This document shows, piece after piece, positions 17,374 to 41,073 of a DNA stretch of 64,000 nt. The notes under the pieces are model-generated. The model saw nothing but the letters and a program-made list of their open reading frames with translations, ran no database searches and was not told where the DNA came from. Within the stretch, counting starts at the first letter, position 1; each line of letters starts with the position of its first letter. The DNA comes from Solirubrobacteraceae bacterium (lineage in GTDB: Bacteria; Actinomycetota; Thermoleophilia; Solirubrobacterales; Solirubrobacteraceae): positions 1,690-65,689 of the forward strand of contig DASXNB010000004.1 in assembly GCA_036495305.1 (NCBI GenBank), written 5' to 3'. The position numbers and the translations under genes are program-made.

Positions 17374-17504
17374 GGTTTGGAGCCTACCGCGTCCCCAACG
17401 GTGGCCATCGGGTGGAGGGCCGCGTCGACTGGCGCTCGTCGAGAGCAGCGGAGACCGTGCTCCGGACTTTTGCAAGCCAGGTGGAGCACGGTCTCACTTC
17501 TGCC

Positions 17505-18470
17505 TCAGCCGCTGAAACCCAGTTCGTTGTTGGGCTCAAGGCCGTGGGTGATGAGTATTTTCAGCCTCACGACCGGTTCGGGGGTGACCGTTTTTTTGAT
17601 GTAGGCGATTTCAAAAGTGCAGACTTCGTTAAGCGCATAAGTTAATTTCCTGCACGTTTCAAGTTCTTCGAGATTGACGGTGAAAAAGCCTGCGCGGAAG
17701 GCGCCCGCCGTAAGGGCTGCGGGTTTGCCGGTTAGGAAGATATCCTTTACTTCTATCGTGCGTTTTTCTCCCGTTTTCGTGAAAATTCCGCCGGGATTTT
17801 TGAGTTCAAAGCAGGGAAAACCGGCAAGGCACGCAAACCCCGCAGCCAGTTCTTTTCCACTGGGGTCTTCGAGGAGGTCGATGCCCGACATTAAGCCTTG
17901 GGCACTGCCGCCGAGCGTGCAGTTGTAGGCTTCGGCTGCGAGTTCGGTTTCGAATATGACGTTTATCCCGGATGGCGCGGCTTCGATCATGTGCGTGGTT
18001 TCACCGGTACATTCGTCGGTGATTTTTATGCCCAGAATCGTGCATTCCACCTTCAAACCGGGTGTTCCGGTTCCGCCACTTGAAATTTTGTCTAAAAAGA
18101 AAGCTTCTTCCCCTGGTTCCATGAGTTGGGTTTTCCAGGGCAGGTGCAACGCGGTGATTTTGATCGTGCCGGCGCCGCATCCGCCCGTGACTGGTGTGCA
18201 TTCTGACATAGTGAATTTGGTGAGTTCGCCTTTGCCGCCCGCGTTTACATTGCCTTCGTCACTGCCTTTGCATGCCACCGCCACGGCTCCGGATGGTGTT
18301 TTCATGTCTTCGATTCGTATAGTTTCGGCGATTTTGGATTTTACGGCTATGGTTTCTTTAACGGGTGTTTTGTTCAGCTCCCATTCGAGTTCTTCGCCAA
18401 ACGCCGGGGTACAGGCGACAGCGCACGGCAAGCAGAGCCCGATCAGGATTGTTGCCAGCTTGGTATACAT
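17505..18470 (-). CDS. Cys-rich secreted (lipo)protein, unknown function, low GC
   Basis: Signal/lipobox-like N-terminus MYTKLATILIGLCLPCAVAC and many Cys. Local GC about 47-50% by hand count against about 70% in the flanks. Confidence 0.6.
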   Translation of the reverse strand: MYTKLATILIGLCLPCAVACTPAFGEELEWELNKTPVKETIAVKSKIAETIRIEDMKTPSGAVAVACKGSDEGNVNAGGKGELTKFTMSECTPVTGGCGAGTIKITALHLPWKTQLMEPGEEAFFLDKISSGGTGTPGLKVECTILGIKITDECTGETTHMIEAAPSGINVIFETELAAEAYNCTLGGSAQGLMSGIDLLEDPSGKELAAGFACLAGFPCFELKNPGGIFTKTGEKRTIEVKDIFLTGKPAALTAGAFRAGFFTVNLEELETCRKLTYALNEVCTFEIAYIKKTVTPEPVVRLKILITHGLEPNNELGFSG

Positions 18471-18681: not shown

Positions 18682-19398
18682 TCAGCCCAGCCCGTCACCG
18701 CGGGAGTGCGGGCCGAGCTCGAGCGCCGCTCTCAACGTGAGCGCCGCTCGCTCGGGGTCGCGGGCGTCGGAGATGGCGCGCAAAACGCACACGCGGGAAG
18801 CGCCCGCGTTGAGCACCTGGCTGACATTTTCTGAGTCGATACCGCCGATGGCGAAGAAGGGGACGTGGGCGTGGGCTGAGGCGTAGGCCACCAGCTCCCT
18901 ACCGACGGGGATTCGGCCTGGCTTCGTAGGCGTCGCGTGGACGGGCCCGACACCGATGTAGTCCACATAGGGGGAGCCGTCAGGAGAGGTGGGGAGCGCC
19001 GTGTCGATCTCCGAGGGGGCGTGGGTGGAGAGTCCCACGAGCATGTCGGGGCCGACGATCTTGCGGGCCTCGGCCACCGAGATGTCGTCCTGCCCGAGGT
19101 GTACCCCGTCGGCGCGCACCGCGGCGGCGATGTCGGGGCGGTCGTTGAGAATGAACAGCACGCCGTGCGCGTCGCAGGCATCGGCGGCGACGGAGGCGGC
19201 TTCGGTTAGGAACTCGTCCTCCAGGTTCTTCTCACGCAGTTGCACCACGTCCACCCCACCGGCGATGGCGGCGGCGAGGAACTCAAAGAGGTCGCGTTCG
19301 CCGGGCATGCAGTCGCACACCAGGTACAGGCGGGCGGCGGCAAGACGCGCGCGGCGCTGCTCGCCATTGGGATCGGGGACGGGCCGCAGGTGGGCCAT
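18682..19398 (-). CDS. thiE: Thiamine-phosphate synthase
   Basis: LYLVCD, VVQLREK, GVHLGQDD, IGVGPVHATPTK, FAIGGI. Start trimmed to ATG 19398. Confidence 0.9.
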   Translation of the reverse strand: MAHLRPVPDPNGEQRRARLAAARLYLVCDCMPGERDLFEFLAAAIAGGVDVVQLREKNLEDEFLTEAASVAADACDAHGVLFILNDRPDIAAAVRADGVHLGQDDISVAEARKIVGPDMLVGLSTHAPSEIDTALPTSPDGSPYVDYIGVGPVHATPTKPGRIPVGRELVAYASAHAHVPFFAIGGIDSENVSQVLNAGASRVCVLRAISDARDPERAALTLRAALELGPHSRGDGLG

Positions 19399-19516
19399 GC
19401 GCGCAGTCTGACACTTGCGGGGGGATGTTCCGGAGTTGATCCATATCGCGGTTTGGCCCGGCGGAGGTGTATAGGCACAGAGGAGCCGCGGTGGGGTGCC
19501 CTCTAGCATCAGAACC

Positions 19517-20715
19517 ATGCACACAGGTGAAGGCTCAACAGTGGACGTGGCGATCATCGGTGGGGGGATCGTCGGGTTGTCGGTGGCCTGGAAGGCGCGG
19601 GGGGTGGGGATGTCCGTAGGGGTGTACGAGCGGGGGGAGATCGGAGGGGGCGCGAGTCACGTGGCGGCAGGGATGCTGGCGCCTGTCGCGGAGGTGGAGT
19701 TCGGTAAGGCGGGGCGCGGGGTGCTCGATCTCGGGTTGCGCTCGGCAGCGATGTGGCCCGCTTTCGCGGCTGCCCTGGAGCGCATGAGTGGGACCTGTGT
19801 GGAGTTGCGTAAGACCGGGACGCTGGTGGTGGCCCGCGACGAGGACGAGGCGCGGGAGCTCGAGCGCCAGCTCGCTTTCCGCGAGTCGCTGGGGGTATGC
19901 GCGAGGAGGCTGCGGGCAAGCGAGGCCCGCGAGCACGAGCCGGCGCTCGCCCCAACGGTGCGCTTGGCGTTGCATGCCCCCGACGATCACAGCGTCGACC
20001 CACGCAGGGCGGTGGAGGCGTTGCGGCTGGCATGTGAGCGGGAGGGTGTGGAGATGCACGAGCACACCCCCGCGCGAGTGAGGCTCGACGCGGACGAGGC
20101 CCGCGCGGTTGGAGTGTTTTTGGGGAAAGAGGCATCGTGCGAAGCGGTGAGCGCACGCGAGGTGGTGGTGGCAGGGGGAGCGTGGAGTGGGGAGTCATCA
20201 ATTGGACTACCTTCGTGCTTGGGGGTTCCCGTGAGGCCGGTGAAGGGTCAGATCCTGCGACTCCGCGATCCTGCGGGACCCGGGATGCTCGGAGGGGTAG
20301 TGAGATTCGAGGGCGGCTATCTCGTGCCCCGCGGCGATGGGGGATACGTGTTGGGTGCCACCATGGAGGAGCGTGGGTTCGAGCCGAAGGCCACCGCCGG
20401 GGGTGTGTACGAGCTGTTGCGCGACGCCCATGAGCTGGTGCCCGGCGTCAGCGAGCTTCAGATCGAGGAGTTGGGTGTGGGGTATCGCCCGGGCACACCC
20501 GACAACGCCCCGCTGATCGGCAGAGCCGCCGTGGAGGGGTTGACGTGGGCGACTGGGCACCATCGCAACGGGATACTGCTCGCGCCGCTCACCGCCGAGC
20601 TTGTAGTGGCTTCGCTCACCGGTGACGCAAAGCACGAGCAACCGCTCTCGGTGTGCGATCCAACTCGGTTCCGGGAGCCCGCACACACCACACGGCACGA
20701 TGAGATTCTCTCTTC

Positions 20716-20719
<4 letters not shown>
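19517..20719 (+). CDS. thiO: Glycine oxidase / FAD-dependent oxidoreductase
   Basis: DVAIIGGGIVG dinucleotide fold; sits upstream of thiS-thiG. Start uncertain (GTG 19496, ATG 19517, or GTG 19541 with the best SD). Confidence 0.85.
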
Positions 20720-22184
<1,465 letters not shown>

Positions 22185-30072: not shown

Positions 30073-30090
30073 CTAGTTGCGGCTATGACC

Positions 30091-30870
30091 CTACCCGGCT
30101 CTGGCGGTGGCCGGGGAGAAACGCCAGGCCGCGGGCCGCAGCTGTCCGAGGCGCCGCGCGACGAGCGCGGAGGCGCCCGCGGTGAGCGCGCCGAGGATTG
30201 CGTCGAGGACGAAGTGGTTGGCGGTGGCGATGATGACGAAGGCGATGAGCAGCGGGTAGAGCCGCCACAGGACACGCGCTATGAGAGTGCGCGAGAGCGA
30301 GGCCAGCGGCCAGCCGATCATGATCGCGAAGGCGACGTGCATCGAGGGGACCGCCGCATAGGGGTTGAAGAGCGTGTTCATCGATGCGCTGGCGTGCGAG
30401 ACGTGGACCCCGGTGAGGTCGGATACCGAGTCGATGAAGCCCCACTCCGGTAGGAAGCGCGGGGGGGCGGTGGGGAAGACGGCGTAGCCCACGAGTGCGA
30501 TGAGCATGGCGACGGCGAACATGTTGCGCACGAAGTAGAAGGAGCGGTTGTGGCGCATGTAGAGGTAGATGAGCGCCGCGAGGGTGATCGAGGTTTGGGC
30601 ATTCACGTAGAGCCAGCTCGAGAAGTCCATGAGGGTGTGGCTGGAGGAGGCCCACGCCTGCACGGAGGGCTCCACGAATACGTGCAGGGTGCGCTCGATC
30701 TGGATCAGATCGCGGGCATGCTGGAAGGCGGCTGTGGCTTTGCCCTCGACCAGGCCCCGCACAAGCGAGTAGGCGCCGTAGGCGAGACCCACAAGTGCGA
30801 TTTGGCGCAACAAATCGAGCCATCCCTGCGGCAGCGCAAGCGCGCGCAGGGTCCTTAGCCGGGCTGCCAT
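30091..30870 (-). CDS. PAP2-superfamily membrane protein (Aur1/Ipt1-like PAP2_3 type)
   Basis: Multi-TM protein; PSMHVAFA and ANHFVLDAILG motifs. Confidence 0.65.
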   Translation of the reverse strand: MAARLRTLRALALPQGWLDLLRQIALVGLAYGAYSLVRGLVEGKATAAFQHARDLIQIERTLHVFVEPSVQAWASSSHTLMDFSSWLYVNAQTSITLAALIYLYMRHNRSFYFVRNMFAVAMLIALVGYAVFPTAPPRFLPEWGFIDSVSDLTGVHVSHASASMNTLFNPYAAVPSMHVAFAIMIGWPLASLSRTLIARVLWRLYPLLIAFVIIATANHFVLDAILGALTAGASALVARRLGQLRPAAWRFSPATARAG

Positions 30871-30879
30871 CGTGAAAGG

Positions 30880-32277
30880 TTAGCCCATGAAACGGTAGAG
30901 GCGCCAGTGTTGGGAGTGCCACAGCTCGCGCAAATAGGGCACTCCGCGCGCGACGAGCGCGCCCTCCAGGCGGCCGGCTTTGTCGAGGGGGGCGTCGGGG
31001 AGCGCCACGTATTGCACCCGGTTTTCAGACAGCCACGCGCGGTAGGCGGAGCGTGTGAGGGTGGGGGCGTAGAAGAGCGATGCGTAGCGGGTGTCGAGCT
31101 GGCGCTCCCAGCCGCGGGCCAGCTCGACACCGTCGTGGCCGGCTAGATAGGCGGCCTCCCAGTGGGCTTTGGTGAGGGGGACCTCGACGATCGTGTGGTT
31201 GCGCGCTCCTGCCTCGCCATTGGTTAGTTGCGCGGCGTCGAGGTGTTTCAACTCCGCGAGGAGGGGAGCGTAGTAGGAGGCGTGTACCGAAGGGTCGGAG
31301 GCGATCGAGTTGTAGTCGCGGATGGGGGTGACGAGTTGCCAGTAGAGCAGCGCGGGGGCCAGTGCCGCGAGCAGCGCGCGCGAGTGGCGGATCCCCCACG
31401 CACCGGCGCCGGCTGGGCTCTCCCACAGCACCCCGGCGAGCAGCGGCCCGGCGAAGAGTGGACCGAGGCGGGCGGCGTTGCCGCCCATGGGCGTGTGGAT
31501 GGCGAACGCGGCGATCAGGGCAAGCGCATAGAGGGTGGCGCCCGCGCGTACGGCCCTCCGTCCGCGGGGGCTGAGCGGGCCCTGGGGGTAGAGCAGCGCG
31601 ATCAGCGCGACGCCGGCGAGGGCAGGCCAGAAGGCTGAGGGGGCGAAGGGCTCGTATCCCCCCTCGGGGTAGGCGAGGGTGAGGATCAGAATCGGTGTCA
31701 GAGCGGCGCCGGCGAGGGCGAGGCCGTGCTTTCTGTTCGCGACGGCGTAGGCGAGTCCGGCGAGGGCGAGAAAAGCTCCCGCGACCGGGCTTGCGATGCT
31801 GGTGAGGAGGGCGAGCCCGAGTGCGGTGGCGAGTTGGCGGTGCATCAGGGCGAGCACGGAGCCGAGCCCGACCGCGAGGCCAAGGTCGAACGGGACGCGC
31901 CCCGAGAGAAGTCCGACGGAGACGCCAAGCGCGAACCAGGCGGCGGACACGCGGGCCGCACGTGGGGGGAAGGCGCGGCTCGCGATGAGCGCGAACACGA
32001 CGCTCGCGGCTAGCGCCGAGCAGGCGAGCAGTACACGTACACCAACCAGTGCTCCCAGCGCCGGTGAGAGCAGCGAGTAGCCCGGGAGGTAGTGGCCGTG
32101 CGCGGCATACCAACCCGTGTCCCACGTGGAGAAGCCGACACGCGCGAACAGGTTGCTCCTGTACGTGGCGGCGGCGAGATCTGCGGCCGGTGGTGCGAGG
32201 ATCAGGTAGAGCAGCGCCAGCGGAACCGCCACGAACAACGCCACGGCCCACGGCCTGACGGCGACCTTTAGGAACAT
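30880..32277 (-). CDS. Large polytopic membrane protein, possible GT-C type glycosyltransferase
   Basis: About 10 or more TM segments followed by a soluble C-terminal domain. The function is inferred from architecture and context only. Confidence 0.5.
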   Translation of the reverse strand: MFLKVAVRPWAVALFVAVPLALLYLILAPPAADLAAATYRSNLFARVGFSTWDTGWYAAHGHYLPGYSLLSPALGALVGVRVLLACSALAASVVFALIASRAFPPRAARVSAAWFALGVSVGLLSGRVPFDLGLAVGLGSVLALMHRQLATALGLALLTSIASPVAGAFLALAGLAYAVANRKHGLALAGAALTPILILTLAYPEGGYEPFAPSAFWPALAGVALIALLYPQGPLSPRGRRAVRAGATLYALALIAAFAIHTPMGGNAARLGPLFAGPLLAGVLWESPAGAGAWGIRHSRALLAALAPALLYWQLVTPIRDYNSIASDPSVHASYYAPLLAELKHLDAAQLTNGEAGARNHTIVEVPLTKAHWEAAYLAGHDGVELARGWERQLDTRYASLFYAPTLTRSAYRAWLSENRVQYVALPDAPLDKAGRLEGALVARGVPYLRELWHSQHWRLYRFMG

Positions 32278-32281
32278 CGGG

Positions 32282-32310
32282 TTGACACGCTAACAGTGGT
32301 CATGTATGTT
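32282..32310 (+). promoter_or_regulatory. Sigma-70-like promoter candidate (TTGACA-17-TATGTT)
   Basis: Consensus -35 with a 17-nt spacer and a 4/6 -10, in the AT-richer intergenic region facing the island operon. Confidence 0.35.
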
Positions 32311-32514
32311 TATAGATGTTCCATGTGCACAACGGGTGCGCTGGTGAATACATAAGGTCGGGTTTGGGTCGGTCTTCGTGGTCGACACCAACAGTATTGA
32401 CGGGGACCTTGGGAGAGGGACCGGGTCGTTCTTGAGAGGGAGTTGTTTTTCGCGTGCATTCGTTCGGGGATCATGTGTCTGAGAGTCCGTGTGTTTCTGG
32501 CGGGTCCTTTATAG

Positions 32515-32539
32515 GACGCGTCAGCGTCGCTGACGCGTC
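32515..32539. repeat. Perfect 25-bp palindrome GACGCGTCAGCG-T-CGCTGACGCGTC
   Basis: Read directly from the sequence; 12-nt arms with a single central nucleotide. Confidence 0.95.
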
Positions 32540-32560
32540 TCTCTCTCTCTCTCTCTCTCT
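32538..32560. repeat. (TC)11 dinucleotide microsatellite
   Basis: 23 nt, TCTC...T, overlapping the last 2 nt of the palindrome. It is 224 nt upstream of the operon start codon. Confidence 0.95.
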
Positions 32561-32783
32561 GGCCGAGCCGCCGAACAGGCGCTAGCGGCCTAAACCGCCG
32601 GGAAGAACCGCGCAGAGCCGGGCAGAACGCCCGTCTGAACGCACTTGCGCGCACCGCCGTTCGCGGCGATGCGCGTACCGCTCGTTGTAGTCGCGGCGCG
32701 TATATGTGCGCGACCCGTTTGTCCTTGCCCGCCGCACAGGCGCGGGTTTCGTGTGGCGTGCTCCTACAGGAGGGGATGATCTC

Positions 32784-35189
32784 GTGCTGAGCCTTGCAGA
32801 AGTGACCACCCGCAAGACAACCAGGCTGATGGCGCTGGTCGCAGCGGCACTCCTCGCGTTTGCCGCCCTCGCGACGCAATCGTGGGGAAGCGCGGGGTGT
32901 CACAACGAACAGTTCCGCACGGGGCTGGGAGCGAACCTTCCGGACTGCAGGGCATACGAGCAGGTGTCGCCGCAAGAAAAGAGCGCGGGCGGAGTGGACG
33001 GCGGACTGGCCGCCGCAACGCATCCGGGACCGGAGCAGGCCGCGGACAACGGTGAAAGCGTGACCTACGAGTCGCAGACCGCATTTGCGGGAGCCGACCC
33101 TCAGAGTGCGCTCCTGAGCAATCAATACATGTCGCGGCGTACCGCGAACGGCTGGAGCACAACCGCGATAACGCCGCCACAGGAACTTGAAAACGGCAAG
33201 ATCAACATCAGCCCGGGGAGCGTTTACTACTCGCTCTACCAGGGCTTCGGATCGAATCTCGAATACGGGTATCTCGTTGCCTCTAAGCCGGCACCGGTGA
33301 AAAGCGCTCCCGCGGGTTACTCGATGCCCTATCTGCACAACAACTTCAGCGGCAAGTATGCGCTTTTGGCCGAAACCGCTCCGCCGGTCGTGGCGCCTCT
33401 GCCAGGGACCTGCTGTAGGGGTCTCAAAACGAACTACCAGGGTATGACCGCCGATGGAAGCCATGTGATTTTCGAAGCCAATGACGCGCTCGTACCCGGC
33501 GCGTTTGAAGGAAACGAGAATCTCTACGAGTGGAATGAAGGAACATTGGAACTCGTCAACGTTCTTCCAAATGGAGCGGTTGAACTCGGCAGATTCGGTA
33601 TGAACGGTTGGGAAAAATTTCCACCCGAACTCACCAACAACGCTCTTTCGAGGGACGGTAAGCGTGCGTTTTGGTCGACTAACAACGGCGAAGGCACCAA
33701 AGGCCAAGTTTACATGCATGAAATCACTCCTTCCGGACCTCGCACGGTAGACATTTCCGCTACCCAGAAGACAAATGGAAGCGGACCCGAAGGACACGAT
33801 CCGGGCGGAACGGGGCAGGCGCAATACTGGGCCGCAAACGCCGAAGGGACTCTTGTCTACCTGACCAGCCCGGAGCAGCTCACAAACGAAGCAACGGCGT
33901 CATATCGGCCTTTGCAGTTCGTGACAGGGACCAGCCCGGCCATCGAAGGCGATCTGTACCAGTACAACGTGGGAACCGGGAAACTGACAGATCTGACCGT
34001 CGATGAAAACACAGGCGAAAGAGCCGGTGTGCAGGGCGTCATCGGCGCGAGCGAAGACGGCTCCTACGTGTACTTTGCCGCCAAAGGCGTGCTCGCGAAT
34101 GGTGCGGTGGCCACCTCGTCAAACGACCTCAGGGCGGCAAATATCTACGTTTGGCACGACGGCGAAATCAAATTCATTGGTACTACCGACGCCCACAGCC
34201 AGTATCTCTTTGGCGAAGACGAGGAGTGGGGCTCAGCAGCAGGCGAGGTTGGCGCCCGCGTGAGTCCGAACGGAAAGTATCTCGCGTTTACATCGGTGTC
34301 GCAGTTCGGCAGTCACAATACGGAACCGGCGACTTCCCAAGCCTGTGTGCCGAAGGTGGGTGAGGAAGCCATCCTCAACTACCTCAATTACTTCACCAAC
34401 AACGGCAAACGATGCACGCAAGTGTACGTTTACGACGCCGCCACGGCCGAACTCACCTGTGCCTCATGCGCGCCCGCTGGACTTCCGTCAACGGGCGACT
34501 CTTATGTGCCGCACGGGATCGGACTTGAACCGGTGCCTGGATGGCAGGAGTCCAGCGATCAGCAGCGCTACCTCTCGAGCGACGGACGCCTCTTCTTCGA
34601 GAGCTCTGCCGGATTGGTGGCCGGCGATACGAACGGAAACGAGGACGTATACGAGTGGGAGCCGGCGGGTGTGGGCGGGTGCTCGGGTGCAAGGCCGTGT
34701 CTGAGCCTCATATCCGGTGGGGTCAGTGCACGCGAATCGCAGTTCGTGGACGCCAACGCCACGGGCAGCAACGTCTTTTTCATAACCTTTGACCAGCTCG
34801 CCGGCAGCGACGGCGACGAACATCAGGACCTCTACGATGCGCGTGTCGACGGCGGATTTGTGGCGCCGCTGGCTCCCCCCTGTCAGGGCGAAGTATGCAG
34901 GTCGGCGGTCACGCCCGCTCCGGCGATCTACGGGGCGCCCACAAGCCAGGCGTTTAGCGGTGTTGGCAACCCTTACAACGAAGCGTTTGCCCCCAAGAGC
35001 GTAAAGAAGGTGAAGGGCGCCAAGTCGAAGATCGAGACAAAGCGGCGCACCGCCGCGCTGAAGCGCTGCCAAAAGATGAAAACCATCAGCCAGAGAAAGC
35101 GCTGCAAGCAACGCGTAAACAGTAAGTCCGCAAAGAACGCGCGGACCGGGCATGGACACGGCAAGCAGGGTAACGGGAGGGGCAAGTGA
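32784..35189 (+). CDS. Secreted PD40/TolB-like beta-propeller protein with polybasic C-terminal tail
   Basis: GTG start 10 nt after AGGAGG; signal peptide LMALVAAALLAFAALATQSWG. Seven blade-like units (SxDG...F ... (D/N)xYx(W/Y): ENLYEW, GQVYMH, GDLYQY, ANIYVW, TQVYVY, EDVYEW, QDLYDA). K/R-rich last roughly 64 aa. Confidence 0.75.
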   Translation: MLSLAEVTTRKTTRLMALVAAALLAFAALATQSWGSAGCHNEQFRTGLGANLPDCRAYEQVSPQEKSAGGVDGGLAAATHPGPEQAADNGESVTYESQTAFAGADPQSALLSNQYMSRRTANGWSTTAITPPQELENGKINISPGSVYYSLYQGFGSNLEYGYLVASKPAPVKSAPAGYSMPYLHNNFSGKYALLAETAPPVVAPLPGTCCRGLKTNYQGMTADGSHVIFEANDALVPGAFEGNENLYEWNEGTLELVNVLPNGAVELGRFGMNGWEKFPPELTNNALSRDGKRAFWSTNNGEGTKGQVYMHEITPSGPRTVDISATQKTNGSGPEGHDPGGTGQAQYWAANAEGTLVYLTSPEQLTNEATASYRPLQFVTGTSPAIEGDLYQYNVGTGKLTDLTVDENTGERAGVQGVIGASEDGSYVYFAAKGVLANGAVATSSNDLRAANIYVWHDGEIKFIGTTDAHSQYLFGEDEEWGSAAGEVGARVSPNGKYLAFTSVSQFGSHNTEPATSQACVPKVGEEAILNYLNYFTNNGKRCTQVYVYDAATAELTCASCAPAGLPSTGDSYVPHGIGLEPVPGWQESSDQQRYLSSDGRLFFESSAGLVAGDTNGNEDVYEWEPAGVGGCSGARPCLSLISGGVSARESQFVDANATGSNVFFITFDQLAGSDGDEHQDLYDARVDGGFVAPLAPPCQGEVCRSAVTPAPAIYGAPTSQAFSGVGNPYNEAFAPKSVKKVKGAKSKIETKRRTAALKRCQKMKTISQRKRCKQRVNSKSAKNARTGHGHGKQGNGRGK

Positions 35190-38014
35190 TGCGGAGGGCG
35201 CTGACAGCATCGATCATGGTAGTTGCGGCTGCGCTGGCTGTGGCCGCACCGGCGTTGGCTGGGTTCGGCCTGGCCGAAGAACACGGGTTCGAAGTCTCGA
35301 TTACCAACCAGGACGGCACACCCGACACGCAGGCGGGTTCGCATCCCTTTGCGTTTACCACGACACTCAATTTGAACACCGAAGGCACTGGAGGCAAGAT
35401 TCACGCGGCGGGCGGGGACGTGCGGGATGCAGTGCTGGATCTTCCGCCCGGTCTCGTGGGTGACACCAGTGCGGTTCCGACATGCTCGATTGCTGCTTTC
35501 ACGAAGACGGAACTCAACTTCGGTGACAGCCACCCTTGCCCCGACGATACGCAGGTGGGGGTGATAAATCTCCAGCTCAACGGTTTTCCACCGGCAGAGC
35601 CGGTGTACAGCTTGACGCCTCCCAAGGGCGATCCGGCAGAGTTCGGGTTCATCGCGCTGACCTCACCGGTGGTCATAGTGCCCTCCGTGCGGACGGGCCG
35701 CGACTATGGCGTGAGTGCCACGGTCCCAACGATTCCCGAGGCCTTCTCGATGGTGAAAGCCGAACTGACGCTCTGGGGCGTGCCGGGCGACCCCGCGCAC
35801 AACGAAGAACGGGGAGGGTGCTTGAAAGAATTCGTGGAAGAACCCAACGAAGGCGAATGTCCCGTCAGCAACGCGCCGCGTCCGTTCTTGAGCCTGCCGA
35901 CCTCATGCACAGGTCCGCTTCATTGGTCTGCACGGGTGGATTCTTGGGAAGAACCCGGCGTTTGGAAGACAGCGGAAACGACCACTCCCGGTATGACGGG
36001 TTGCGAGAGGATCGGCTTCGCTCCGAACCTTCAGGTGCAAGCCGAACCGGCCGAGGCGGCCTCGCCGAGCGGGTTGAGCGTTCAGATCAATGTGCCACAG
36101 ACGTACGAAGACCCGTCCGGCCTGGCGTCGGCGAACCTCAAGGACACGACCGTGACGTTGCCCGCGGGTGTGGCACTGAATCCGTCGGCGGCCGACGGTC
36201 TGGCGGCTTGCGGCGAAGCGCAAATGGGCCTGCACGACGCGGCGCCGGCGCAGTGCCCTAATGCGTCGAAGGTGGGCACGGTTGAAATCACGACGCCATT
36301 GTTGGGACATCCGTTCTCGGGCGGTGTGTACCTGGCACAGCAGGGCAACCTGCCCGGCAACGGCAGCAACCCGTTCGGTTCGCTGCTGGCGATCTATATC
36401 GCCGCGGAAGATCCGATCTCGGGTGTGATCGTGAAGCTCGCGGGCGAAGTCAAACCTGATCCCGCCACCGGGCAGCTGGTCACGACTTTCCTTGACAATC
36501 CGCAGCTGCCGTTTGACAGCTTGAAGCTGAGCTTTTTCGGCGGGCCGCGCGCGCCGCTTACCACACCGACATTCTGCGGATCGTATGCGGCGACTACGCA
36601 GATGACGCCGTGGAGCGGCGGCGCATCCGCTACGCCGGGGGGCTATTTCACCATCGCCTCCGGACCGGCCGGCTCGGGGTGCTTGAGCTCGGAAGCGTTC
36701 ACGCCGTCGTTGGTGGCGGGTACGACCAGCAACCAGGCCGGCGCGTTTACGCCCTTTACGTTGACGATGAATCGCAACGACGGCGAACAGAACCCGTCGC
36801 GTATCCAGGTCACCACGCCGCCGGGTTTGTTGGGGCAACTCTCCGGCGTAACGCTGTGCGGGGAACCGGCGGCGAGGCTCGGGACGTGCGCTGCGGAGAG
36901 TTTGATCGGACACACGACGGTGGCCGTAGGTGCAGGCAGCAACCCGTTCTATGTCACGGGCAACGTGTACCTGACGGGGGGCTACAACGGCGCGCCGTAC
37001 GGGTTGTCGTTTGTGGTTCCGGCTATAGCGGGACCGTTGAACCTGGGTACGGTGGTGGTCCGCGCGGCAGTCGATGTCGATCCTACGACGGCTGCGTTGA
37101 CGGTCACAAGCGAACCGCTGCCGCAGATCCTGCAGGGTATTCCCTTGCACATCAGGGCGGTGAACGTGACGCTCGACCGGCACGATTTTATCATCAATTC
37201 AACGAATTGCGCGCCTATGGCGCTGCGAACGACGATGACCGGCGCGCTGGGCGGCGTCGACACGGTCGAGACGCACCTGCAGGTGACCAACTGTGCGGTG
37301 CTTGGGTTCAAGCCGCAATTCCACCCCTTTGTTTCCGGGCGTAACTCGCGTCAACGCGGCGCCGCCCTCGACGCGCGCTTGAGCTATCCCAAGGGCGCGG
37401 AGGGCAGGGAGGCCAACATCGCGAAGGTGCGGGTTGAACTGCCAAAGCAACTGCCATCGCGGCTGGAAACGCTTCAGAAGGCGTGCCTCGACGGTGTCTT
37501 CAACCGCAATCCCGCGGAATGCCCCGCGGCTTCGCGCGTCGGGATCGCGCGAGCCAGGACGCCGGTGCTGCCGGTGGAGCTGGAAGGCACCGTGTTCTTC
37601 GTATCCCACGGCGGCGCGAAGTTCCCCGACCTCGTGGTGGTCCTCCAGGGATACGGCGTTCGTGTAGATCTGGTCGGCAGCACGTTCATCAGCTCCGCGG
37701 GTGTCACCAGCACCACGTTCGAACAGGTCCCGGATGTGCCCGTGGAAAGCTTCGAGCTGTATTTGCCACAAGGCCGTTATTCGGCGCTCGCCGCCAACGG
37801 GAACCTCTGCAAGCACCTAAACATGCTGATGCCTACGGACTTCCAGGCGCAGAACGGCAAGACGATTCACCAGTCCACACGGATCAAGGTCACCGGGTGC
37901 GCGGCAAAGTCAGCGCGCAGCGCGCGTCTGCGTCATCAACAGCAGAAATACCGAGGCAAAAACGGTCGGACAGCCAGTCACGGTCGTACCGCCGACAAGA
38001 GGGGGCACCGATGA
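35189..38014 (+). CDS. Secreted 941-aa protein of unknown family, basic C-terminal tail
   Basis: ATG overlaps the upstream TGA (TGATG); a GTG at 35186 is also possible. [10 protein letters not shown]; signal peptide ...AVAAPALA. I recognise no motif from a characterised family. Confidence 0.75.
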   Translation: MRRALTASIMVVAAALAVAAPALAGFGLAEEHGFEVSITNQDGTPDTQAGSHPFAFTTTLNLNTEGTGGKIHAAGGDVRDAVLDLPPGLVGDTSAVPTCSIAAFTKTELNFGDSHPCPDDTQVGVINLQLNGFPPAEPVYSLTPPKGDPAEFGFIALTSPVVIVPSVRTGRDYGVSATVPTIPEAFSMVKAELTLWGVPGDPAHNEERGGCLKEFVEEPNEGECPVSNAPRPFLSLPTSCTGPLHWSARVDSWEEPGVWKTAETTTPGMTGCERIGFAPNLQVQAEPAEAASPSGLSVQINVPQTYEDPSGLASANLKDTTVTLPAGVALNPSAADGLAACGEAQMGLHDAAPAQCPNASKVGTVEITTPLLGHPFSGGVYLAQQGNLPGNGSNPFGSLLAIYIAAEDPISGVIVKLAGEVKPDPATGQLVTTFLDNPQLPFDSLKLSFFGGPRAPLTTPTFCGSYAATTQMTPWSGGASATPGGYFTIASGPAGSGCLSSEAFTPSLVAGTTSNQAGAFTPFTLTMNRNDGEQNPSRIQVTTPPGLLGQLSGVTLCGEPAARLGTCAAESLIGHTTVAVGAGSNPFYVTGNVYLTGGYNGAPYGLSFVVPAIAGPLNLGTVVVRAAVDVDPTTAALTVTSEPLPQILQGIPLHIRAVNVTLDRHDFIINSTNCAPMALRTTMTGALGGVDTVETHLQVTNCAVLGFKPQFHPFVSGRNSRQRGAALDARLSYPKGAEGREANIAKVRVELPKQLPSRLETLQKACLDGVFNRNPAECPAASRVGIARARTPVLPVELEGTVFFVSHGGAKFPDLVVVLQGYGVRVDLVGSTFISSAGVTSTTFEQVPDVPVESFELYLPQGRYSALAANGNLCKHLNMLMPTDFQAQNGKTIHQSTRIKVTGCAAKSARSARLRHQQQKYRGKNGRTASHGRTADKRGHR

Positions 38015-39882
38015 GCACGCTCAATAGAGACCTACGCGTTCGGCTCGTGGCGATGGTCGCCGCCGGGTTGCTGATTGCACTGTGCGCGGCCGCGCCGGCC
38101 TCGGCGGCCGTGCCTGTGGTGACGACGGGCGTGGCCAGCGAAGTGATGGCTTCGAGCATGAAGGTCTGTGGAACGGTGAACCCCGAAGGCGAAAGCACCA
38201 CTTACCACTTCAATTACGAACACTACGAAAATGGATGGCAGCTGGAAAAGAGCGCGCCGGCGTCGGCGGGCGCGGGGACGGCGGCTAACGAAGTCTGCGT
38301 CGCGCTCTCGGGCTTGATGCCGCAAACCAAATACTGGTATCGTATCGTCGCTGAAAACGGATCGGGCGAATCGCTTGGAGAAGAACTGAGCCAACAGACC
38401 CCGGCTGCCGTCGAAGGATTGGCGACCGAACCGCCCACCAACCTGACACGTCTCGGCGCGACGAGCAGCGTTACGCTGAATGGCGTTCTCGCTCCAAACG
38501 GGCACGACACGCATTATTATTTCGAATATGCAAAAGGTATCTACGTCCCTGTCAAAGGGGTCAAAAACGAAATAGCGCCTGCGCTGCCCGGTGGGGATGC
38601 GGGCGAAGAAAGCAAACTCGTACACGTGTCTGCGACCGTCGAAATACCGACCAACGTCGAATTTTCGTACATGCTTGTGGGTGTCAATCAATTCGGCGCC
38701 ACCTACGGCTCCGAACAGAGGGTGTTTGTGCCGGCGGTGGAGGGCGTGCAAACCCTCTCACCGACAGAACTGACCGCGAGCAGCGCCGTTCTGAACGGCA
38801 CGCTCGAACCGAATGGCTTCGATGCCCACTGGCAGTTCGTGTGTGTGGCGCCCGAAGCCGCGGCGCCAAGCGTGGCGGCGGACGCGGGATCGGCGAGCGG
38901 CCCGGTGGCGGTGAACGCGAGATTGACGCAGCTGTCGAACGGCGACCCGCTCGAGGGAAACACTAAAATGTCTTGCAGCCTGGTTGCCTCCGACTCGCTT
39001 GGTTCCAACGAAGGTGCATTGGTGAAATTCACCACCCCGGCGGCGGCCCCTCTGATCGAAAACGGTGCGCAACCGGGAGTTACCACGACGACCGCGGGCG
39101 TTCACTCCAACATTCAGACAGAGAACGAACCCACCGCGCTTTGGGTCGAATACGTGGACGCCGCGGGATACGACGCCACGGCCGCGAATCCGTATGAAGC
39201 GGGCGGAAAGACCGTCGCCGCTCATCTGGAAGCGACGCCTTACGTAGTGCGCAATGCGACGCGCGGCATCGTGGGACTGTCTGCGGCCACGGCCTACCAT
39301 TACCGTTTCGTCGCCGAAAACGCCACAGGCGTCACGTACGGGTCGGATGTCACGTTTACGACGGCGCCATTGAGTCCTCCGATGGTGACTACCGGCGCCG
39401 CGAGCGGTGTCTCGGCAACGGGTGGGACGATTTCCGGCACGGTCAACCCGGAGAGCCTGAAGACAAGTTACGAGTTCCAGATCGGTGAGACGAGCAGTTA
39501 CGGCGGTGCCGAAATATTCGGCGACGCCGGCGAAGCGGGTGGCGACGAAGCGGTCTCAACGACCCTGAGCTATCTCGTACCGGGCATGACGTACCACTAT
39601 CGCCTCCTTGCCACTAACGCCGACGGTACGACGTATGGGCCGGACATGGTTTTCACGACCCCGAATGTCCCCTCGCCGATAGGACAACCTGTGCCGACTC
39701 CGCTCCTGGCGTTTGCGCCGGCTGTCTTCCCGGTGGAACCAAAAACGCCCGCGACGCAGCCTCGGCACAAGGTCAAGGCCAAGACCAAAGGCAAGAGCAA
39801 GGCGAAGCACAAGAAGAAGGCGGTGGGCAAGAAGCAAGGTAAGAAAGCCGTCCGCAAAGGCCAGCGCAAGAAGAAGAAATGA
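38011..39882 (+). CDS. Secreted protein with five FN3/Ig-like repeats and a poly-Lys tail
   Basis: ATGA overlap with the upstream gene; signal peptide ...CAAAPASA. Repeats carry VNPEG..T.Y.F.Y ... Y(H/W)YR.VA.N ... FTT. 22 of the last 40 residues are K/R. Confidence 0.75.
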   Translation: MSTLNRDLRVRLVAMVAAGLLIALCAAAPASAAVPVVTTGVASEVMASSMKVCGTVNPEGESTTYHFNYEHYENGWQLEKSAPASAGAGTAANEVCVALSGLMPQTKYWYRIVAENGSGESLGEELSQQTPAAVEGLATEPPTNLTRLGATSSVTLNGVLAPNGHDTHYYFEYAKGIYVPVKGVKNEIAPALPGGDAGEESKLVHVSATVEIPTNVEFSYMLVGVNQFGATYGSEQRVFVPAVEGVQTLSPTELTASSAVLNGTLEPNGFDAHWQFVCVAPEAAAPSVAADAGSASGPVAVNARLTQLSNGDPLEGNTKMSCSLVASDSLGSNEGALVKFTTPAAAPLIENGAQPGVTTTTAGVHSNIQTENEPTALWVEYVDAAGYDATAANPYEAGGKTVAAHLEATPYVVRNATRGIVGLSAATAYHYRFVAENATGVTYGSDVTFTTAPLSPPMVTTGAASGVSATGGTISGTVNPESLKTSYEFQIGETSSYGGAEIFGDAGEAGGDEAVSTTLSYLVPGMTYHYRLLATNADGTTYGPDMVFTTPNVPSPIGQPVPTPLLAFAPAVFPVEPKTPATQPRHKVKAKTKGKSKAKHKKKAVGKKQGKKAVRKGQRKKKK

Positions 39883-39899
39883 GATGTCCACAGGTCGAG

Positions 39900-39925
39900 G
39901 GGCACAATCCTGCACGGCTGTGCCC
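39900..39925 (+). terminator. Weak hairpin after the operon
   Basis: GGGCACA - 12 nt - TGTGCCC; no U tract. Confidence 0.25.
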
Positions 39926-39972
39926 GACGCACTGAGGTTCCGTTGGGAAGGGTCGCGGAGGGAGAGGGCGAG

Positions 39973-41073
39973 ATGACAGTTCATTCGCCCCCACACGGAC
40001 GTGAAGGTGGTGCGGCGGTGCGTCCCCGCCGCGGCGACACGGCCCGCGAGGGCGCGCACGTCGCCGCGATGCAGCGTCGGCGCCTGCTGCACGCGTTCTG
40101 CGAGATCGTCGGCGAGTCGGGACTGGAGCGGGCGGGGATCGGGCGTGTGTGCAAGCGCGCCGGCGTGTCGAGGCGCACCTTCTACGACCTCTTCGAAGAC
40201 CGCGAAGCGTGCTTCCTCGCCGCGCTCGACGGTGCTTTCGAGCGAATGGCGGCGTTCGTGCGCGACGCGTGCGACGGCGAATTGACGTGGGAAGAGCGCA
40301 TTAACCACGCCACGGATGCACTACTCACGCTGTTCGACCGCGATCGCGCGACCGCGCGTATGTGCGTAGTGGAGACGCTCAGGGGCGGCCCGCGGGCGCT
40401 CGACCGCCGCGCTTCGGCCCTCGCGATGCTCGCGAGGGCGGTCGATGAGGGTCGCGAGGTTGCGGCGCGAGAAGGGATGGGCGCGCCGTCGCCGCTCACC
40501 GCGGAAAGCGTGGTGGGGGGCGCGCTGTCAGTGATCCACACCCGTTTGCTCGACCGCGCCGACGCTCCGCTCTCGCCGCTCGCGGAACCGCTTGCGGAGA
40601 TGATCGTGCGTCCGTATCTCGGCGCCCGCGTTGGCTCGGTGGGTGCAAATGGACGGCGCCCGACGGGTACCACGCGACTCGCGAAGGGGAGGCGACGTGC
40701 GCAAGAGAGGCGTCGAGGGGAGGACGGCGCGCAACGGGCTGGAGCGGCGGACGTACCCGATGTAGGCGCTCCAGTCGGGAGCAGGCCCGCGGTGGACGAC
40801 ACGTCGTTGAGCCTGTTCGACAACCTGGCGATTCGCGTCACGTACCGCACCGCCATGGTGATCGCGACTATCGCCGAGAACCCTGGCGCGAGCAGCCGAT
40901 CGGTGGGCGAGCGGGCCGGGATAGCCGACCAAGGGCAGGCGTCGAAGCTGCTGCGTCGCCTGTGTCGTCACGGGTTGATCGAGCACCAGCTGGAGGCGCG
41001 CGGGAGGGGCGAGGCGTACGCGTGGGCTCTCACCGACCGCGGGCGGGCGGTACACGAGACGCTCTCGACTTAG
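39973..41073 (+). CDS. Transcriptional regulator, TetR-type N-terminal HTH fused to a C-terminal MarR-like winged helix
   Basis: TetR signature GIGRVCKRAGVSRRTFYDLFEDREACF. The C-terminal 90 aa, ATIAENPGASSRSVGERAGIADQGQASKLLRRLCRHGLIE...YAWALTDRG, look like a wHTH. ATG 39973 follows GGAGGGAGAGGG. Confidence 0.65.
   Translation: MTVHSPPHGREGGAAVRPRRGDTAREGAHVAAMQRRRLLHAFCEIVGESGLERAGIGRVCKRAGVSRRTFYDLFEDREACFLAALDGAFERMAAFVRDACDGELTWEERINHATDALLTLFDRDRATARMCVVETLRGGPRALDRRASALAMLARAVDEGREVAAREGMGAPSPLTAESVVGGALSVIHTRLLDRADAPLSPLAEPLAEMIVRPYLGARVGSVGANGRRPTGTTRLAKGRRRAQERRRGEDGAQRAGAADVPDVGAPVGSRPAVDDTSLSLFDNLAIRVTYRTAMVIATIAENPGASSRSVGERAGIADQGQASKLLRRLCRHGLIEHQLEARGRGEAYAWALTDRGRAVHETLST

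Follow-up and report, generated by a model that had tools for sequence, protein, structure and literature searches.

A multi-copy Solirubrobacteraceae cassette encoding three large exported proteins, a dual-HTH regulator and a conserved leader

Introduction

Proteins that act at the bacterial cell surface have been described in several systems that resemble the locus reported here. The S-layer proteins of Lactobacillus bind teichoic acids non-covalently, and their genes are highly expressed and occur in multiple or silent copies (PMC3666127). Giant Ig-like adhesins (MSCRAMM, AgI/II, Bap, SiiE, Ebh) carry a shaft of repeated beta-sandwiches, the length of which is set by module duplication. In actinobacteria, the mycobacterial surface protein HBHA binds polyanions through its Lys/Ala/Pro-rich C-terminal tail.

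We analyzed a stretch of 64,000 nucleotides (the window) from a Solirubrobacteraceae bacterium. This soil actinobacterium carries a self-contained 8.8-kb cassette comprising the genes for three large exported, non-enzymatic proteins (P1, P2 and P3), a regulator (Reg) and a leader, and none of these parts has a described function. The cassette is widespread and multi-copy in Solirubrobacteraceae.

Results

The whole cassette (promoter, leader, P1, P2, P3 and Reg, all on the + strand) spans positions 32256..41073. Its left limit was placed at the onset of nucleotide homology to a related locus, L085, a homology that reaches 40243, and its right limit at the Reg stop codon. This codon abuts GGCTACGAgGGAgc, which matches the uninterrupted intergenic site between the 465-aa protein and abhydrolase genes of another locus, L001. 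A preliminary description had recognized a three-gene operon at 32784-39882, a unit that is too short on both sides: a conserved, putatively structured leader (32345-32569) lies upstream of P1, and the dual-HTH regulator makes the genes four. The remaining gene structure was confirmed. The three large ORFs (32784-35189, 35189-38014 and 38011-39882) are linked by stop/start overlaps, TGATG at 35187-35191 for P1/P2 and ATGA at 38011-38014 for P2/P3, and each has a signal peptide and its own SD (GGAGGGG at 32770-32776 ahead of the GTG start codon of P1, 35174-35181 for P2, and AGAGGGGG at 37999-38006 for P3), while tRNA, integrase and transposase genes are absent from the borders. The lower GC content noted before is real, but the dip is smaller than stated and the contrast modest, as the P1, P2 and P3 genes have 60.0, 63.5 and 61.3% GC versus 66% for the window. 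Their GC3 values (0.70, 0.76 and 0.72) are ~10-15 points below those of the neighbors (0.80-0.91), and the 60-nt lines across the trio have a median GC of 0.62 (range 0.42-0.82) versus 0.67 elsewhere.

Behind its signal peptide, P1 (32784..35189, + strand, 801 aa) has a conserved disulfide loop (CxNExFRTG..LPDCRAYExVSP) and a large beta-propeller; its C-terminal tail is rich in Lys/Arg and is predicted to form a two-helix hairpin at residues 748-787. Cleavage sites in its homologues are of the A-x-A type, not lipoboxes. The Pfam PD40 match of P1 is sub-threshold (18.5 versus 20.9 bits); its homologues bear PF07676. The AF2 model (pLDDT 77, pTM 0.77) matched the Tricorn, S9-peptidase and TolB propellers in Foldseek with a probability of 1.0 and E-values down to 2e-10. 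The propeller proposed earlier, described there as seven-bladed and PD40/TolB-like, is retained; for the blade number, the strand pattern suggests eight or more. In many cassettes P1 is fused to FN3, and among P1 relatives there are also some fusions with NHL or SGL-type propellers. An LPXTG motif had been reported as absent; P1 does contain an internal LPSTG at residue 567, which was ruled out as a sorting signal because it is not C-terminal, is not followed by a TM segment and is not conserved.

P2 (35189..38014, + strand, 941 aa) comprises, after its signal peptide, four homologous beta-sandwich modules of ~220 aa each (residues about 25-270, 271-500, 501-705 and 706-905) and a basic tail, and contains 18 Cys. 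It is predicted to be all-beta, with one internal hydrophobic window within a predicted beta-strand region, and its motif QAGSHP (residues 48-53) is invariant. In line with the preliminary description, which recognized no characterized family, P2 had no family match in Pfam, NCBIfam, PADLOC, PHROGs or PDB sequences. Its Foldseek matches were all Ig-like domain strings, from integrin legs and alpha-2-macroglobulin to pilins and MSCRAMMs (Bbp, AgI/II and the CfaB pilin among them), and these are generic, with TM-scores of 0.16 or less. At 50% identity the P2 family falls into more than 8,000 clusters, all labeled hypothetical and most of them from metagenomes of Solirubrobacteraceae, and in relatives of 2-7 kaa the 270-700 region is repeated up to 16 times.

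P3 (38011..39882, + strand, 623 aa) combines a signal peptide with five FN3-like repeats of ~100 aa (36-132, 150-242, 246-344, 348-451 and 458-552), a Pro-rich linker and a basic tail (23 K+R among the last 60 residues); the repeat number agrees with the earlier count, and the scores for fn3 and PhoD_N exceed the threshold. In P1 and P3, TM-like hydrophobic stretches are confined to the N-terminus. All three proteins have acidic bodies and end in a conserved Lys/Arg-rich tail lacking a TM segment. The last 40 residues contain a median of 11 K+R in P2 homologues and 18 in P1 homologues (about 2 expected), and no C-terminal hydrophobic segment was found among the 389 homologues of this survey of P1 and P2 tails. 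The tails of P1 and P2 extend at their very ends into the SD of the following gene, so that their conservation is partly nucleotide-level. It is correct that sortase signals and TM anchors are missing, as had been pointed out, but the polybasic tails constitute a candidate anchoring device; alternatively, they could target DNA, membrane or an external polyanion rather than the wall. Pfam, NCBIfam, PADLOC and PHROGs searches identified no catalytic domain in P1-P3.

Reg (39973..41073, + strand), a dual-HTH regulator by Pfam and by its PDB matches to TetR and MarR proteins, starts either with the ATG at 39973 or with a GTG at 40018. A TetR_N HTH (about residues 39-84) leads into a TetR-like core, which a basic linker joins to a MarR-type winged helix at the C-terminus; more than 1,000 homologues have this two-domain layout, and Reg adjoins cassettes at other loci too. 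The ligand-binding TetR core hints at metabolite-responsive control, which fits a nutrient-related role as well as an adhesin.

A sigma-70-like promoter, TTGACA-17-TATGTT (32282..32310, + strand, 10/12 matches in a promoter scan), precedes the leader, and a TTGAC-type -35 is found at a similar upstream distance in most leader copies having upstream flank. The leader element (32345..32569, + strand, ~225 nt) is a candidate structured RNA by conservation and covariance model. On the same strand it contains GA block 1 (32411-32420), GA block 2 (32434-32442), hairpin P3 (about 32451-32478), the 12-bp palindromic hairpin P5 (32514-32540) and a (UC)11U tract of 23 nt (32538-32560), along with a 5' hairpin and a variable hairpin between hairpins P3 and P5. 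Its identity to the leader of L085 is 91-92%, and it stays at 83-90% at loci where the P2 proteins share only about 45-52% identity. With the covariance model, 20 complete copies and 12 copies truncated by contig ends were found, every one of them on the + strand and ahead of the first gene of its cassette; pairing is found in 87% of cells versus 44-62% in slid controls, and the covariation score is 0.194 versus 0.07-0.10. No match was found among 4,227 Rfam families, the single-sequence fold of the full leader is no better than shuffles (z = -1.3), and the leader is absent from about half of the P2 loci with long upstream flanks.

The conservation of the trio as neighbors in related genomes, which the preliminary description had suggested testing, is borne out by P1 lying directly upstream of P2 in 53/58 loci. 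Among the 18 fully flanked loci, FN3 is present in 13 and Reg in 12. The FN3 module is either carried by P1 as a fusion or has a gene of its own behind P2. Several cassettes or paralogues can be found per contig, and in related genomes they occupy different sites, with insertion polymorphism. The picture of a one-off island gives way to that of a multi-copy, positionally mobile cassette.

Discussion

The absence of a family for P2, the synteny of the trio and its exported, non-enzymatic products leave a dedicated extracellular or envelope assembly as the most economical reading. An extracellular or envelope assembly had been proposed before; the exported, non-enzymatic and uncharacterized nature of the trio stands, but that picture did not include anchoring, regulator, leader and copy number. 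We consider, at a probability of about 0.5, that the cassette builds a non-enzymatic, cell-surface complex of the rod or adhesin type, tethered electrostatically by its basic tails and controlled by leader and regulator; that the proteins lie at the surface, are tethered there, form a complex and act as adhesin or coat is what we infer from the sequences. A single transcript from the near-consensus promoter would carry the ~225-nt structured leader, in which the two purine (GA) blocks would clamp the (UC)11U tract around three hairpins. Stop/start-coupled translation would yield P1, P2 (the rod) and P3 in fixed proportion, each to be exported by Sec, oxidized to disulfides and presumably held on anionic wall or membrane polymers by its Lys/Arg-rich, TM-less tail. 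As relatives lengthen P2 by repeating the D2-D3 unit, P2 may be the extensible shaft, with P1 and the FN3 string as its probable obligate partners, and the TetR/MarR dual-HTH protein and the shared leader would set when each paralogous cassette is expressed.

Other readings were weighed against this one. The strong promoter, the long structured 5' leader, the acidic bodies with basic, putatively cell-wall-binding ends and the many paralogous copies with a near-identical 5' region would all suit alternative S-layer or coat proteins forming a 2-D lattice over the cell, with paralogous cassettes as switchable variants, much as in Lactobacillus, where S-layer genes show high expression, exist in multiple or silent copies and encode teichoic-acid-binding proteins (PMC3666127). 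Such a lattice is nevertheless unlikely. Three different coupled proteins are found instead of one lattice subunit, and module repetition makes relatives range from 0.9 to 7 kaa, a variation that is typical of rods and not of lattices. Pfam gave no SLH, CWB2 or S-layer domain, and nothing points to an expression-site mechanism, every copy being equipped with a promoter of its own. We also regard as improbable that the cassettes encode substrate-capture or nutrient-binding surface complexes, comparable in function to polysaccharide-utilization loci or cellulosome scaffolds, with each cassette tuned to a ligand of its own and induced via the ligand-binding TetR core of its regulator. Flanking genes differ at every locus, no hydrolase, transporter or binding-protein gene is conserved beside the cassettes, and no CBM or lectin domain was detected with Pfam, although the dedicated regulator diverges fast (48% aa versus about 86% nucleotide identity for the structural genes), paralogues are many and diversified per genome, propeller, FN3 and Ig-like modules often serve as scaffolds for binding carbohydrates or ligands, and the NHL or SGL-type fusions of P1 relatives point the same way.

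The upstream element might instead act as DNA, either as an operator array for the dual-HTH regulator, as a cassette-exchange recombination site, or both. Its strongest feature is a perfect 12-bp palindrome, in which symmetric changes would also be expected of a dimer-binding site; the high-identity block shared with L085 begins a short way ahead of the promoter, consistent with recombination within the shared 5' region, and cassette sites vary between related genomes. Against this, the palindrome loop measures 3 to 5 nt and stem pairing is kept via compensatory changes, the GA blocks and UC tract are complementary on the same strand with many G-U pairs, which would turn into A-C mismatches on the opposite strand, the element always lies in one orientation downstream of a promoter, and about 220 nt at 85-90% identity go far beyond operator needs; a purely DNA-level role is rather doubtful, and DNA and RNA roles are not mutually exclusive. 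An origin from a phage or mobile element, as tail-fiber/receptor-binding proteins or an anti-phage/toxin system, is very improbable: GC3 below that of the neighbors, insertion polymorphism, the occurrence of Ig-like and FN3 strings in phage tail proteins and a weak Pfam match to the Ig-like domain of tip attachment protein J are set against Sec signal peptides on all three proteins, no phage or mobility genes nearby, no PHROG or PADLOC match for P1-P3 and no relative in 2.9 million viral contigs or in plasmids.

A tail-tethered rod or adhesin-type complex can be compared, part by part, with known systems. With cis-acting 5' leader RNAs such as riboswitches, attenuators and mRNA-stabilizing 5' UTRs, the leader shares its placement between promoter and first gene, conserved helices with compensatory changes and a GC-rich hairpin followed by a pyrimidine tract, which could serve as terminator or anti-SD. 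It differs from known 5' leader RNAs in having two GA blocks that clamp an invariant (UC)n tract of 23 nt, and in the examined loci, which were chosen through P2, it is seen only with this cassette. P1 has the fold of the TolB, Tricorn and S9-peptidase propellers and carries in addition a conserved disulfide loop near its N-terminus, more Cys pairs and a tail that is helical and basic; unlike S9 peptidases, it has no S9 alpha/beta-hydrolase domain, and it shows no obvious TolB N-terminal domain or Pal partner. HBHA, despite its polyanion-binding tail, has a coiled-coil body and is not known to have a signal peptide or homology to the cassette proteins.

Gram-positive S-layer and other surface proteins with non-covalent anchoring, such as SlpA and CbsA of Lactobacillus, are likewise Sec-exported and non-enzymatic, with a cationic teichoic-acid-binding region for retention, several paralogous or silent genes per genome and, for the mRNA, a long 5' untranslated leader (PMC3666127). 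They have no sequence or Pfam similarity to the cassette proteins, however, and consist of a single lattice subunit with a folded wall-binding domain, in contrast to the cassette, whose three coupled proteins end in short Lys/Arg tails of mostly low complexity; moreover, copies are switched by inversion at one expression site, whereas each cassette has its own promoter. P2 resembles the giant Ig-like adhesins in its modular shaft and the way it is lengthened, but the cassette lacks their LPXTG/sortase signal, T1SS signal or TM anchor, and is distinguished from them by a module family without a Pfam model, by a propeller gene as obligate partner and by having its own regulator.

Organization and surroundings of the cassette

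The region at 32256-41073 (+) is organized as a cassette, in which a promoter and a conserved leader precede genes for three exported proteins, P1 to P3, and a regulator gene, Reg. A promoter scan placed a near-consensus promoter (TTGACA-17-TATGTT) at 32282-32310 (+). P1 (32784-35189, +, 801 aa, GTG start), P2 (35189-38014, +, 941 aa) and P3 (38011-39882, +, 623 aa) are chained in the manner and at the positions given by the preliminary description, with overlapping stop and start codons at the P1/P2 junction (aac ggg agg ggc aag TGATG) and at the P2/P3 junction (aag agg ggg cac cgATGA). A Shine-Dalgarno sequence had also been claimed for each gene and all three were found: GGAGGGG lies 7 nt ahead of the GTG of P1, and the purine-rich GGGAGGGG (for P2) and AGAGGGGG (for P3) sit within the final codons of the respective upstream gene. 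The lower GC content reported for these genes is real, but its size is modest (60.0-63.5%; P1 60.0%, P2 63.5% and P3 61.3%, versus 66% for the window). Per 60-nt line, the median GC is 0.62 in the P1-P3 region versus 0.67 elsewhere. The GC3 values (0.70 for P1, 0.76 for P2 and 0.72 for P3, versus 0.80-0.91 for neighbouring genes) are lowered in the three genes and not in Reg.

The remaining window is ordinary chromosome, including thiamine genes, ATCase, DnaK and inositol-phosphate synthase. A tRNA scan and a scan of the flanking ORFs agreed with the earlier statement that no integrase, transposase or tRNA lies at the borders. No Rfam family reached its gathering score anywhere in the window, and this includes the TPP riboswitch, despite the presence of thiamine genes at 18682-21718 (TMP synthase, ThiO-like oxidase and ThiG). 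Beside these genes, a second lower-GC patch (16867-18470, -, 0.59-0.62) holds ORFs of 202 and 321 aa, neither of which has a Pfam match. In addition, a 279-aa ORF at 30083-30922 (-) has a GC3 of 0.49 and a GC1 of 0.875, abnormal for the genome, and is still conserved beside a 465-aa ORF in L001, one of the fetched loci carrying P2 relatives; this could reflect an error in the annotated frame or an unusual gene.

The three exported proteins

P1 to P3 were searched with Pfam, NCBIfam, PADLOC and PHROGs, and P1, P2 and a 38-sequence P2 profile were run against PDB sequences. Apart from a weak PD40 match and fn3-type matches, these searches returned nothing. The sole TM-like hydrophobic segment of P1 and of P3 is N-terminal; P2 has one further internal hydrophobic window, within a region of predicted beta-strands. 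In P1, a cysteine follows the signal peptide and pairs with a conserved DC, forming part of a conserved N-terminal disulfide loop (CxNExFRTG..LPDCRAYExVSP..KNGG.VDGG). A lipoprotein assignment was rejected, since this cysteine is not in a lipobox and the P1 homologues have A-x-A cleavage sites a few residues ahead of it. The PD40 model (PF07676) scores 18.5 bits on P1, below its cut-off of 20.9, and many P1 homologues are annotated with it. The AF2 model (pLDDT 77, pTM 0.77) is a large beta-propeller, for which Foldseek returned a probability of 1.0 to 1k32, 5olj, 5yp4 and TolB entries, in line with the PD40/TolB-like fold proposed earlier; as modelled, the propeller superposes on those of TolB, S9 peptidases and Tricorn, and it carries no attached hydrolase domain. 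The C-terminus is a basic segment with a predicted two-helix hairpin (residues 748-787). For P3, the five FN3/Ig-like repeats first read from the sequence were recovered with a self-trained HMM (93-104 aa each), and matches to fn3 (29.8 bits, cut-off 25) and PhoD_N (32.4 bits, cut-off 30) were obtained.

For P2, no characterised family had been recognised in the preliminary description, and none emerged from the searches made: there was no match in Pfam, NCBIfam, PADLOC, PHROGs or PDB sequences, the last even with the 38-sequence profile. Its model is all-beta (pLDDT 75) and, against PDB and BFVD, Foldseek retrieved solely generic strings of Ig-like domains at TM-scores of at most 0.16 (integrin alpha legs, alpha-2-macroglobulin, complement, CfaB, AgI/II, Bbp and phage Ig/FN3 proteins); a particular homologue cannot be singled out from these. 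The top class among these was alpha-2-macroglobulin, and a thioester protein of this kind was rejected, as P2 has no CxEQ motif; there is also no A2M Pfam match in P2, and the TM-scores to alpha-2-macroglobulin do not exceed 0.10. Profile-profile comparison of the quarters of P2 resolved four homologous modules of ~220 aa, D1 to D4 (97.5% for D2 versus D4, 95.5% for D1 versus D2), each with a disulfide-stapled LPxG...C...CP..S.VG loop. The invariant QAGSHP (residues 48-53, window 35330-35347) occurs only in the head module, D1, to which R168, D172, W196, H204, R208 and C211 (residues 168-211) are likewise confined. Judged by their conservation, the invariant head-module residues are a possible binding, cross-linking or catalytic site.

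Relatives of P2 number more than 6,284 in 90% clusters and form 8,115 clusters at 50% identity; all are labelled as "hypothetical" or "uncharacterized repeat" proteins and, where the source names an organism, it is always Solirubrobacteraceae. In giant relatives of 2,112-7,161 aa (P0121-P0129), a single QAGSHP head module is followed by up to 16 repeats of the D2-D3 unit (query ~270-700), as would be expected for a rod of variable length.

Basic C-terminal tails and the question of anchoring

P1, P2 and P3 each combine an acidic body with a C-terminal tail that is rich in Lys/Arg and has no hydrophobic segment. The tails are conserved in the homologues, with a median K+R count in the last 40 residues of 11 for P2 and 18 for P1, where ~2 would be expected. 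With an 18-residue window and a KD threshold of >1.6, no hydrophobic segment was found in the C-terminal 70 aa of 389 homologues or of P1-P3 themselves. The extreme ends of P1 (..NGRGK) and P2 (..KRGHR) are encoded by the Shine-Dalgarno region of the next gene (35174-35189 and 37999-38014), and therefore these terminal motifs may be conserved as nucleotide rather than protein sequence.

The preliminary description had stated that an LPXTG motif and a TM anchor are both absent. There is indeed no C-terminal sorting signal, but an internal LPSTG does occur in P1 (residue 567, 234 aa from the end); it is the only LPXTG-like string and is not kept in homologues, where the consensus is PPTG. The absence of a C-terminal LPXTG followed by a TM segment agrees with the further claim of an operon devoid of sortase signals, and no sortase gene was present among the scanned flanking ORFs of the window or the called genes of the loci L002-L004, L085 and L088.

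Synteny and the cassette regulator

Conservation of the gene order was surveyed in 88 fetched loci. In 53 of the 58 loci with sufficient flank, the gene next to P2 on its upstream side is P1-like. The FN3 string takes one of two forms, an N-terminal fusion to P1 or a gene downstream of P2. The trio is syntenic outside the window as well. Immediately downstream or upstream of the cassettes is a gene for a protein of ~330-370 aa with TetR_N and a C-terminal MarR-type winged helix, which in the window is the fourth gene, Reg (39973-41073, +). Its TetR_N HTH is supported by PF00440 (30 bits, cut-off 24) and by alignment of PDB TetR regulators to residues ~26-130. The C-terminal part matches HTH_27 (24.1 bits, cut-off 22.2), MarR_2 just below its cut-off (26.0 bits versus 27) and the MarR-type regulator PcaV (residues 294-364, E = 5e-4). 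Its layout is shared by over 1,000 members of the family, and PF12802 is found on many homologues. Several cassettes or paralogues can occur per contig. In two loci, an extra 237-aa gene without a Pfam match, absent from the window, lies between P2 or P3 and the regulator (L002 12958-13671, L004 14723-15436).

A conserved leader upstream of the cassette genes

Between the promoter and P1 lies a conserved non-coding leader of ~225 nt (32345-32569, +). It is 91-92% identical to that of L085 and 83-90% identical in more than 10 loci in which P2 identity is just 45-52%, and thus it is far more conserved than the proteins encoded downstream. Searches with nhmmer and a covariance model gave 20 complete copies, plus 12 that are cut off by contig ends. 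Every copy is on the cassette strand and precedes the first gene of its cassette (P1, an FN3-P1 fusion or Reg). Contigs begin or end inside the leader in L008, L010, L013, L022, L035, L036, L038, L070, L079 and L086. This is expected of a near-identical multi-copy repeat, and it suggests that assemblies are interrupted at the leader and that tandem cassettes can occur. No Rfam match was found for the leader, the best sub-threshold scores over 32200-32850 being to miRNA models at E >= 2.

Consensus and single-sequence folds suggest a 5' hairpin and a pairing in which GA block 1 (GGGAGAGGGA, 32411-32420, +) contacts the distal half and GA block 2 (GAGAGGGAG, 32434-32442, +) the proximal half of an invariant 23-nt (UC)11U tract (32538-32560, +). 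The predicted GA:UC pairing encloses a CGCGUG..CAUGUG hairpin, a sequence-variable hairpin and a GC-rich palindromic hairpin of 12 bp (32514-32540, +). With the structure derived from the window sequence, pairing is kept in 87% of cells (60 pairs, 20 sequences) versus 44-62% when the partners are slid. The covariation score, for the same window-derived structure, is 0.194 versus 0.07-0.10 and was reached by none of 500 shuffles. Both partners change in fourteen of the pairs, no variation occurs in the GA:UC helices, and many G-U pairs fit the + strand only. The variable hairpin lacks statistical support (mean z = -0.5), and the single-sequence fold of the whole leader is no better than that of shuffles (z = -1.3).

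A small ORF in the leader was rejected because the copies differ by frame-breaking 1-2-nt indels and 2-nt hairpin-loop differences, and the substitutions are compensatory rather than synonymous. A phase-variable (TC)n repeat was also discarded, given that the tract has nearly equal length across aligned copies. The leader is probably a cis-acting leader RNA. The hairpin and the pyrimidine tract could act as an attenuator, or the UC tract could be an anti-Shine-Dalgarno sequence neutralised by the GA blocks. Approximately 20 nt past the UC tract, many leader copies have a semi-conserved CTAG-containing palindromic motif (GGCGCTAGCGGCC, 32577-32590), possibly an operator or an additional RNA element.

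Proposed exchange between genomic sites and between cassettes

The backbone of L001 is that of the window (GT4-PHP, Ino1, CDP-alcohol transferase, 279-aa ORF, 465-aa ORF and abhydrolase), with the cassette at a different point: between Ino1 and the transferase in L001 (4990-14385) and between the 465-aa gene and the abhydrolase in the window. Each is empty at the cassette site of the other, a reciprocal insertion polymorphism, and the sequence right after the Reg stop in the window (GGCTACGAgGGAgc) matches the uninterrupted site in L001. Since the cassette occupies another point on this same backbone, and the neighbours of other cassettes are unrelated, a functional tie to the adjoining phosphatidylinositol genes (Ino1, CDP-alcohol transferase and GT4) was dropped.

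In L085 (9477-17490), a nearer relative than L001, homology to the window is at the nucleotide level and restricted to 32256-40243, with unrelated flanks. Promoter, leader and P1-P3 are ~86% identical in nucleotide sequence, and identity stays at 83% or above in almost every 200-nt stretch between the promoter and the P3 tail, while the Reg proteins are only 48% identical. Together with the GC3 lowered in P1-P3 and not in Reg, this pattern suggests that the promoter-leader-P1-P2-P3 block is exchanged by recombination independently of the regulator.

Interpretation and comparison with known systems

The system is large, lineage-specific and uncharacterised, with a four-gene-plus-leader architecture. 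We infer, with a probability of about one half, that the cassette encodes a stoichiometric, non-enzymatic surface complex controlled by the leader and its own regulator. The complex would be Sec-exported, disulfide-stabilised and located at the cell surface, with P2 as an extensible rod and the P1 propeller and the FN3 string as its partners. Polybasic tails would hold all three proteins on anionic envelope polymers, the shared leader and the TetR/MarR protein would set expression, and the many paralogous cassettes would provide surface variation. The extracellular or envelope assembly envisaged in the preliminary description is partly supported, but that picture was incomplete, as Reg and the leader had been missed. 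A more ambitious picture, which we put forward only tentatively and regard as rather doubtful, is that of a lineage-wide, multi-copy system in Solirubrobacteraceae whose leader-recombining units give switchable or combinatorial wall-tethered appendages or coats. Each unit would comprise a promoter, a leader of a new riboregulatory class with a (UC)n tract clamped by GA blocks, the propeller, a length-variable rod, the FN3 string and a private TetR-MarR dual-HTH regulator, and units would swap between genomic sites and between cassettes via recombination at the shared leader.

Several rivals should be weighed against the surface complex. One is a lattice-forming S-layer; no S-layer anchoring or lattice domain (SLH, CWB2 or Lactobacillus SLAP) was matched in Pfam or NCBIfam at E <= 0.1. 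A ligand-induced scaffold for substrate capture is a further rival. As for the leader, action at the DNA level competes with the RNA reading: a protein could bind the palindrome as a DNA site, and the strand-specific G-U pairs would favour RNA. A phage or defence origin is poorly supported. Phage Ig/FN3 proteins are among the generic P2 matches, and relatives were found neither in viral contigs nor on plasmids. The hallmarks of a prophage or mobile element (integrase, transposase, tRNA target, convincing flanking repeats and viral or plasmid relatives) were all missing, although the site differs between the window and L001; neither a mobility gene nor a flanking repeat accounts for this movement.

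Solirubrobacterales are among the commonest soil Actinomycetota, and to our knowledge almost nothing is known of their cell surface; our literature search found nothing on the P2 family or on the envelope of this order. Thousands of giant proteins labelled "hypothetical" belong to cassettes of this type; for P2, with over 8,000 clusters at 50% identity, there is neither a Pfam model nor a solved structure. Seen as a unit, the cassette becomes a testable system of three exported proteins, a candidate electrostatic anchor, a regulator of its own and a leader common to the copies. This leader has an unusual invariant (UC)n tract and could readily be proposed as a new RNA family; it would also account for the breaks at cassette borders in metagenome assemblies of these organisms. 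A surface complex of this kind, if real, would represent a sortase-independent and TM-independent display of large protein assemblies on the Gram-positive wall.

Regarding known systems, the cassette differs from sortase substrates, known S-layer anchoring modules, thioester proteins and every Rfam family, lacking the defining features of each, and its memberships are generic only (beta-propeller, FN3 and TetR HTH). It resembles giant Ig-repeat adhesins. It is also similar to non-covalently anchored Gram-positive surface and S-layer proteins, which bind the wall through cationic ends, exist as several paralogues and have a long 5' leader (PMC3666127); the counterparts in the cassette are its basic ends, its paralogues and its own long 5' leader. 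The cassette probably belongs among the wall-associated surface protein assemblies, and the RNA motif attached to it is probably new.
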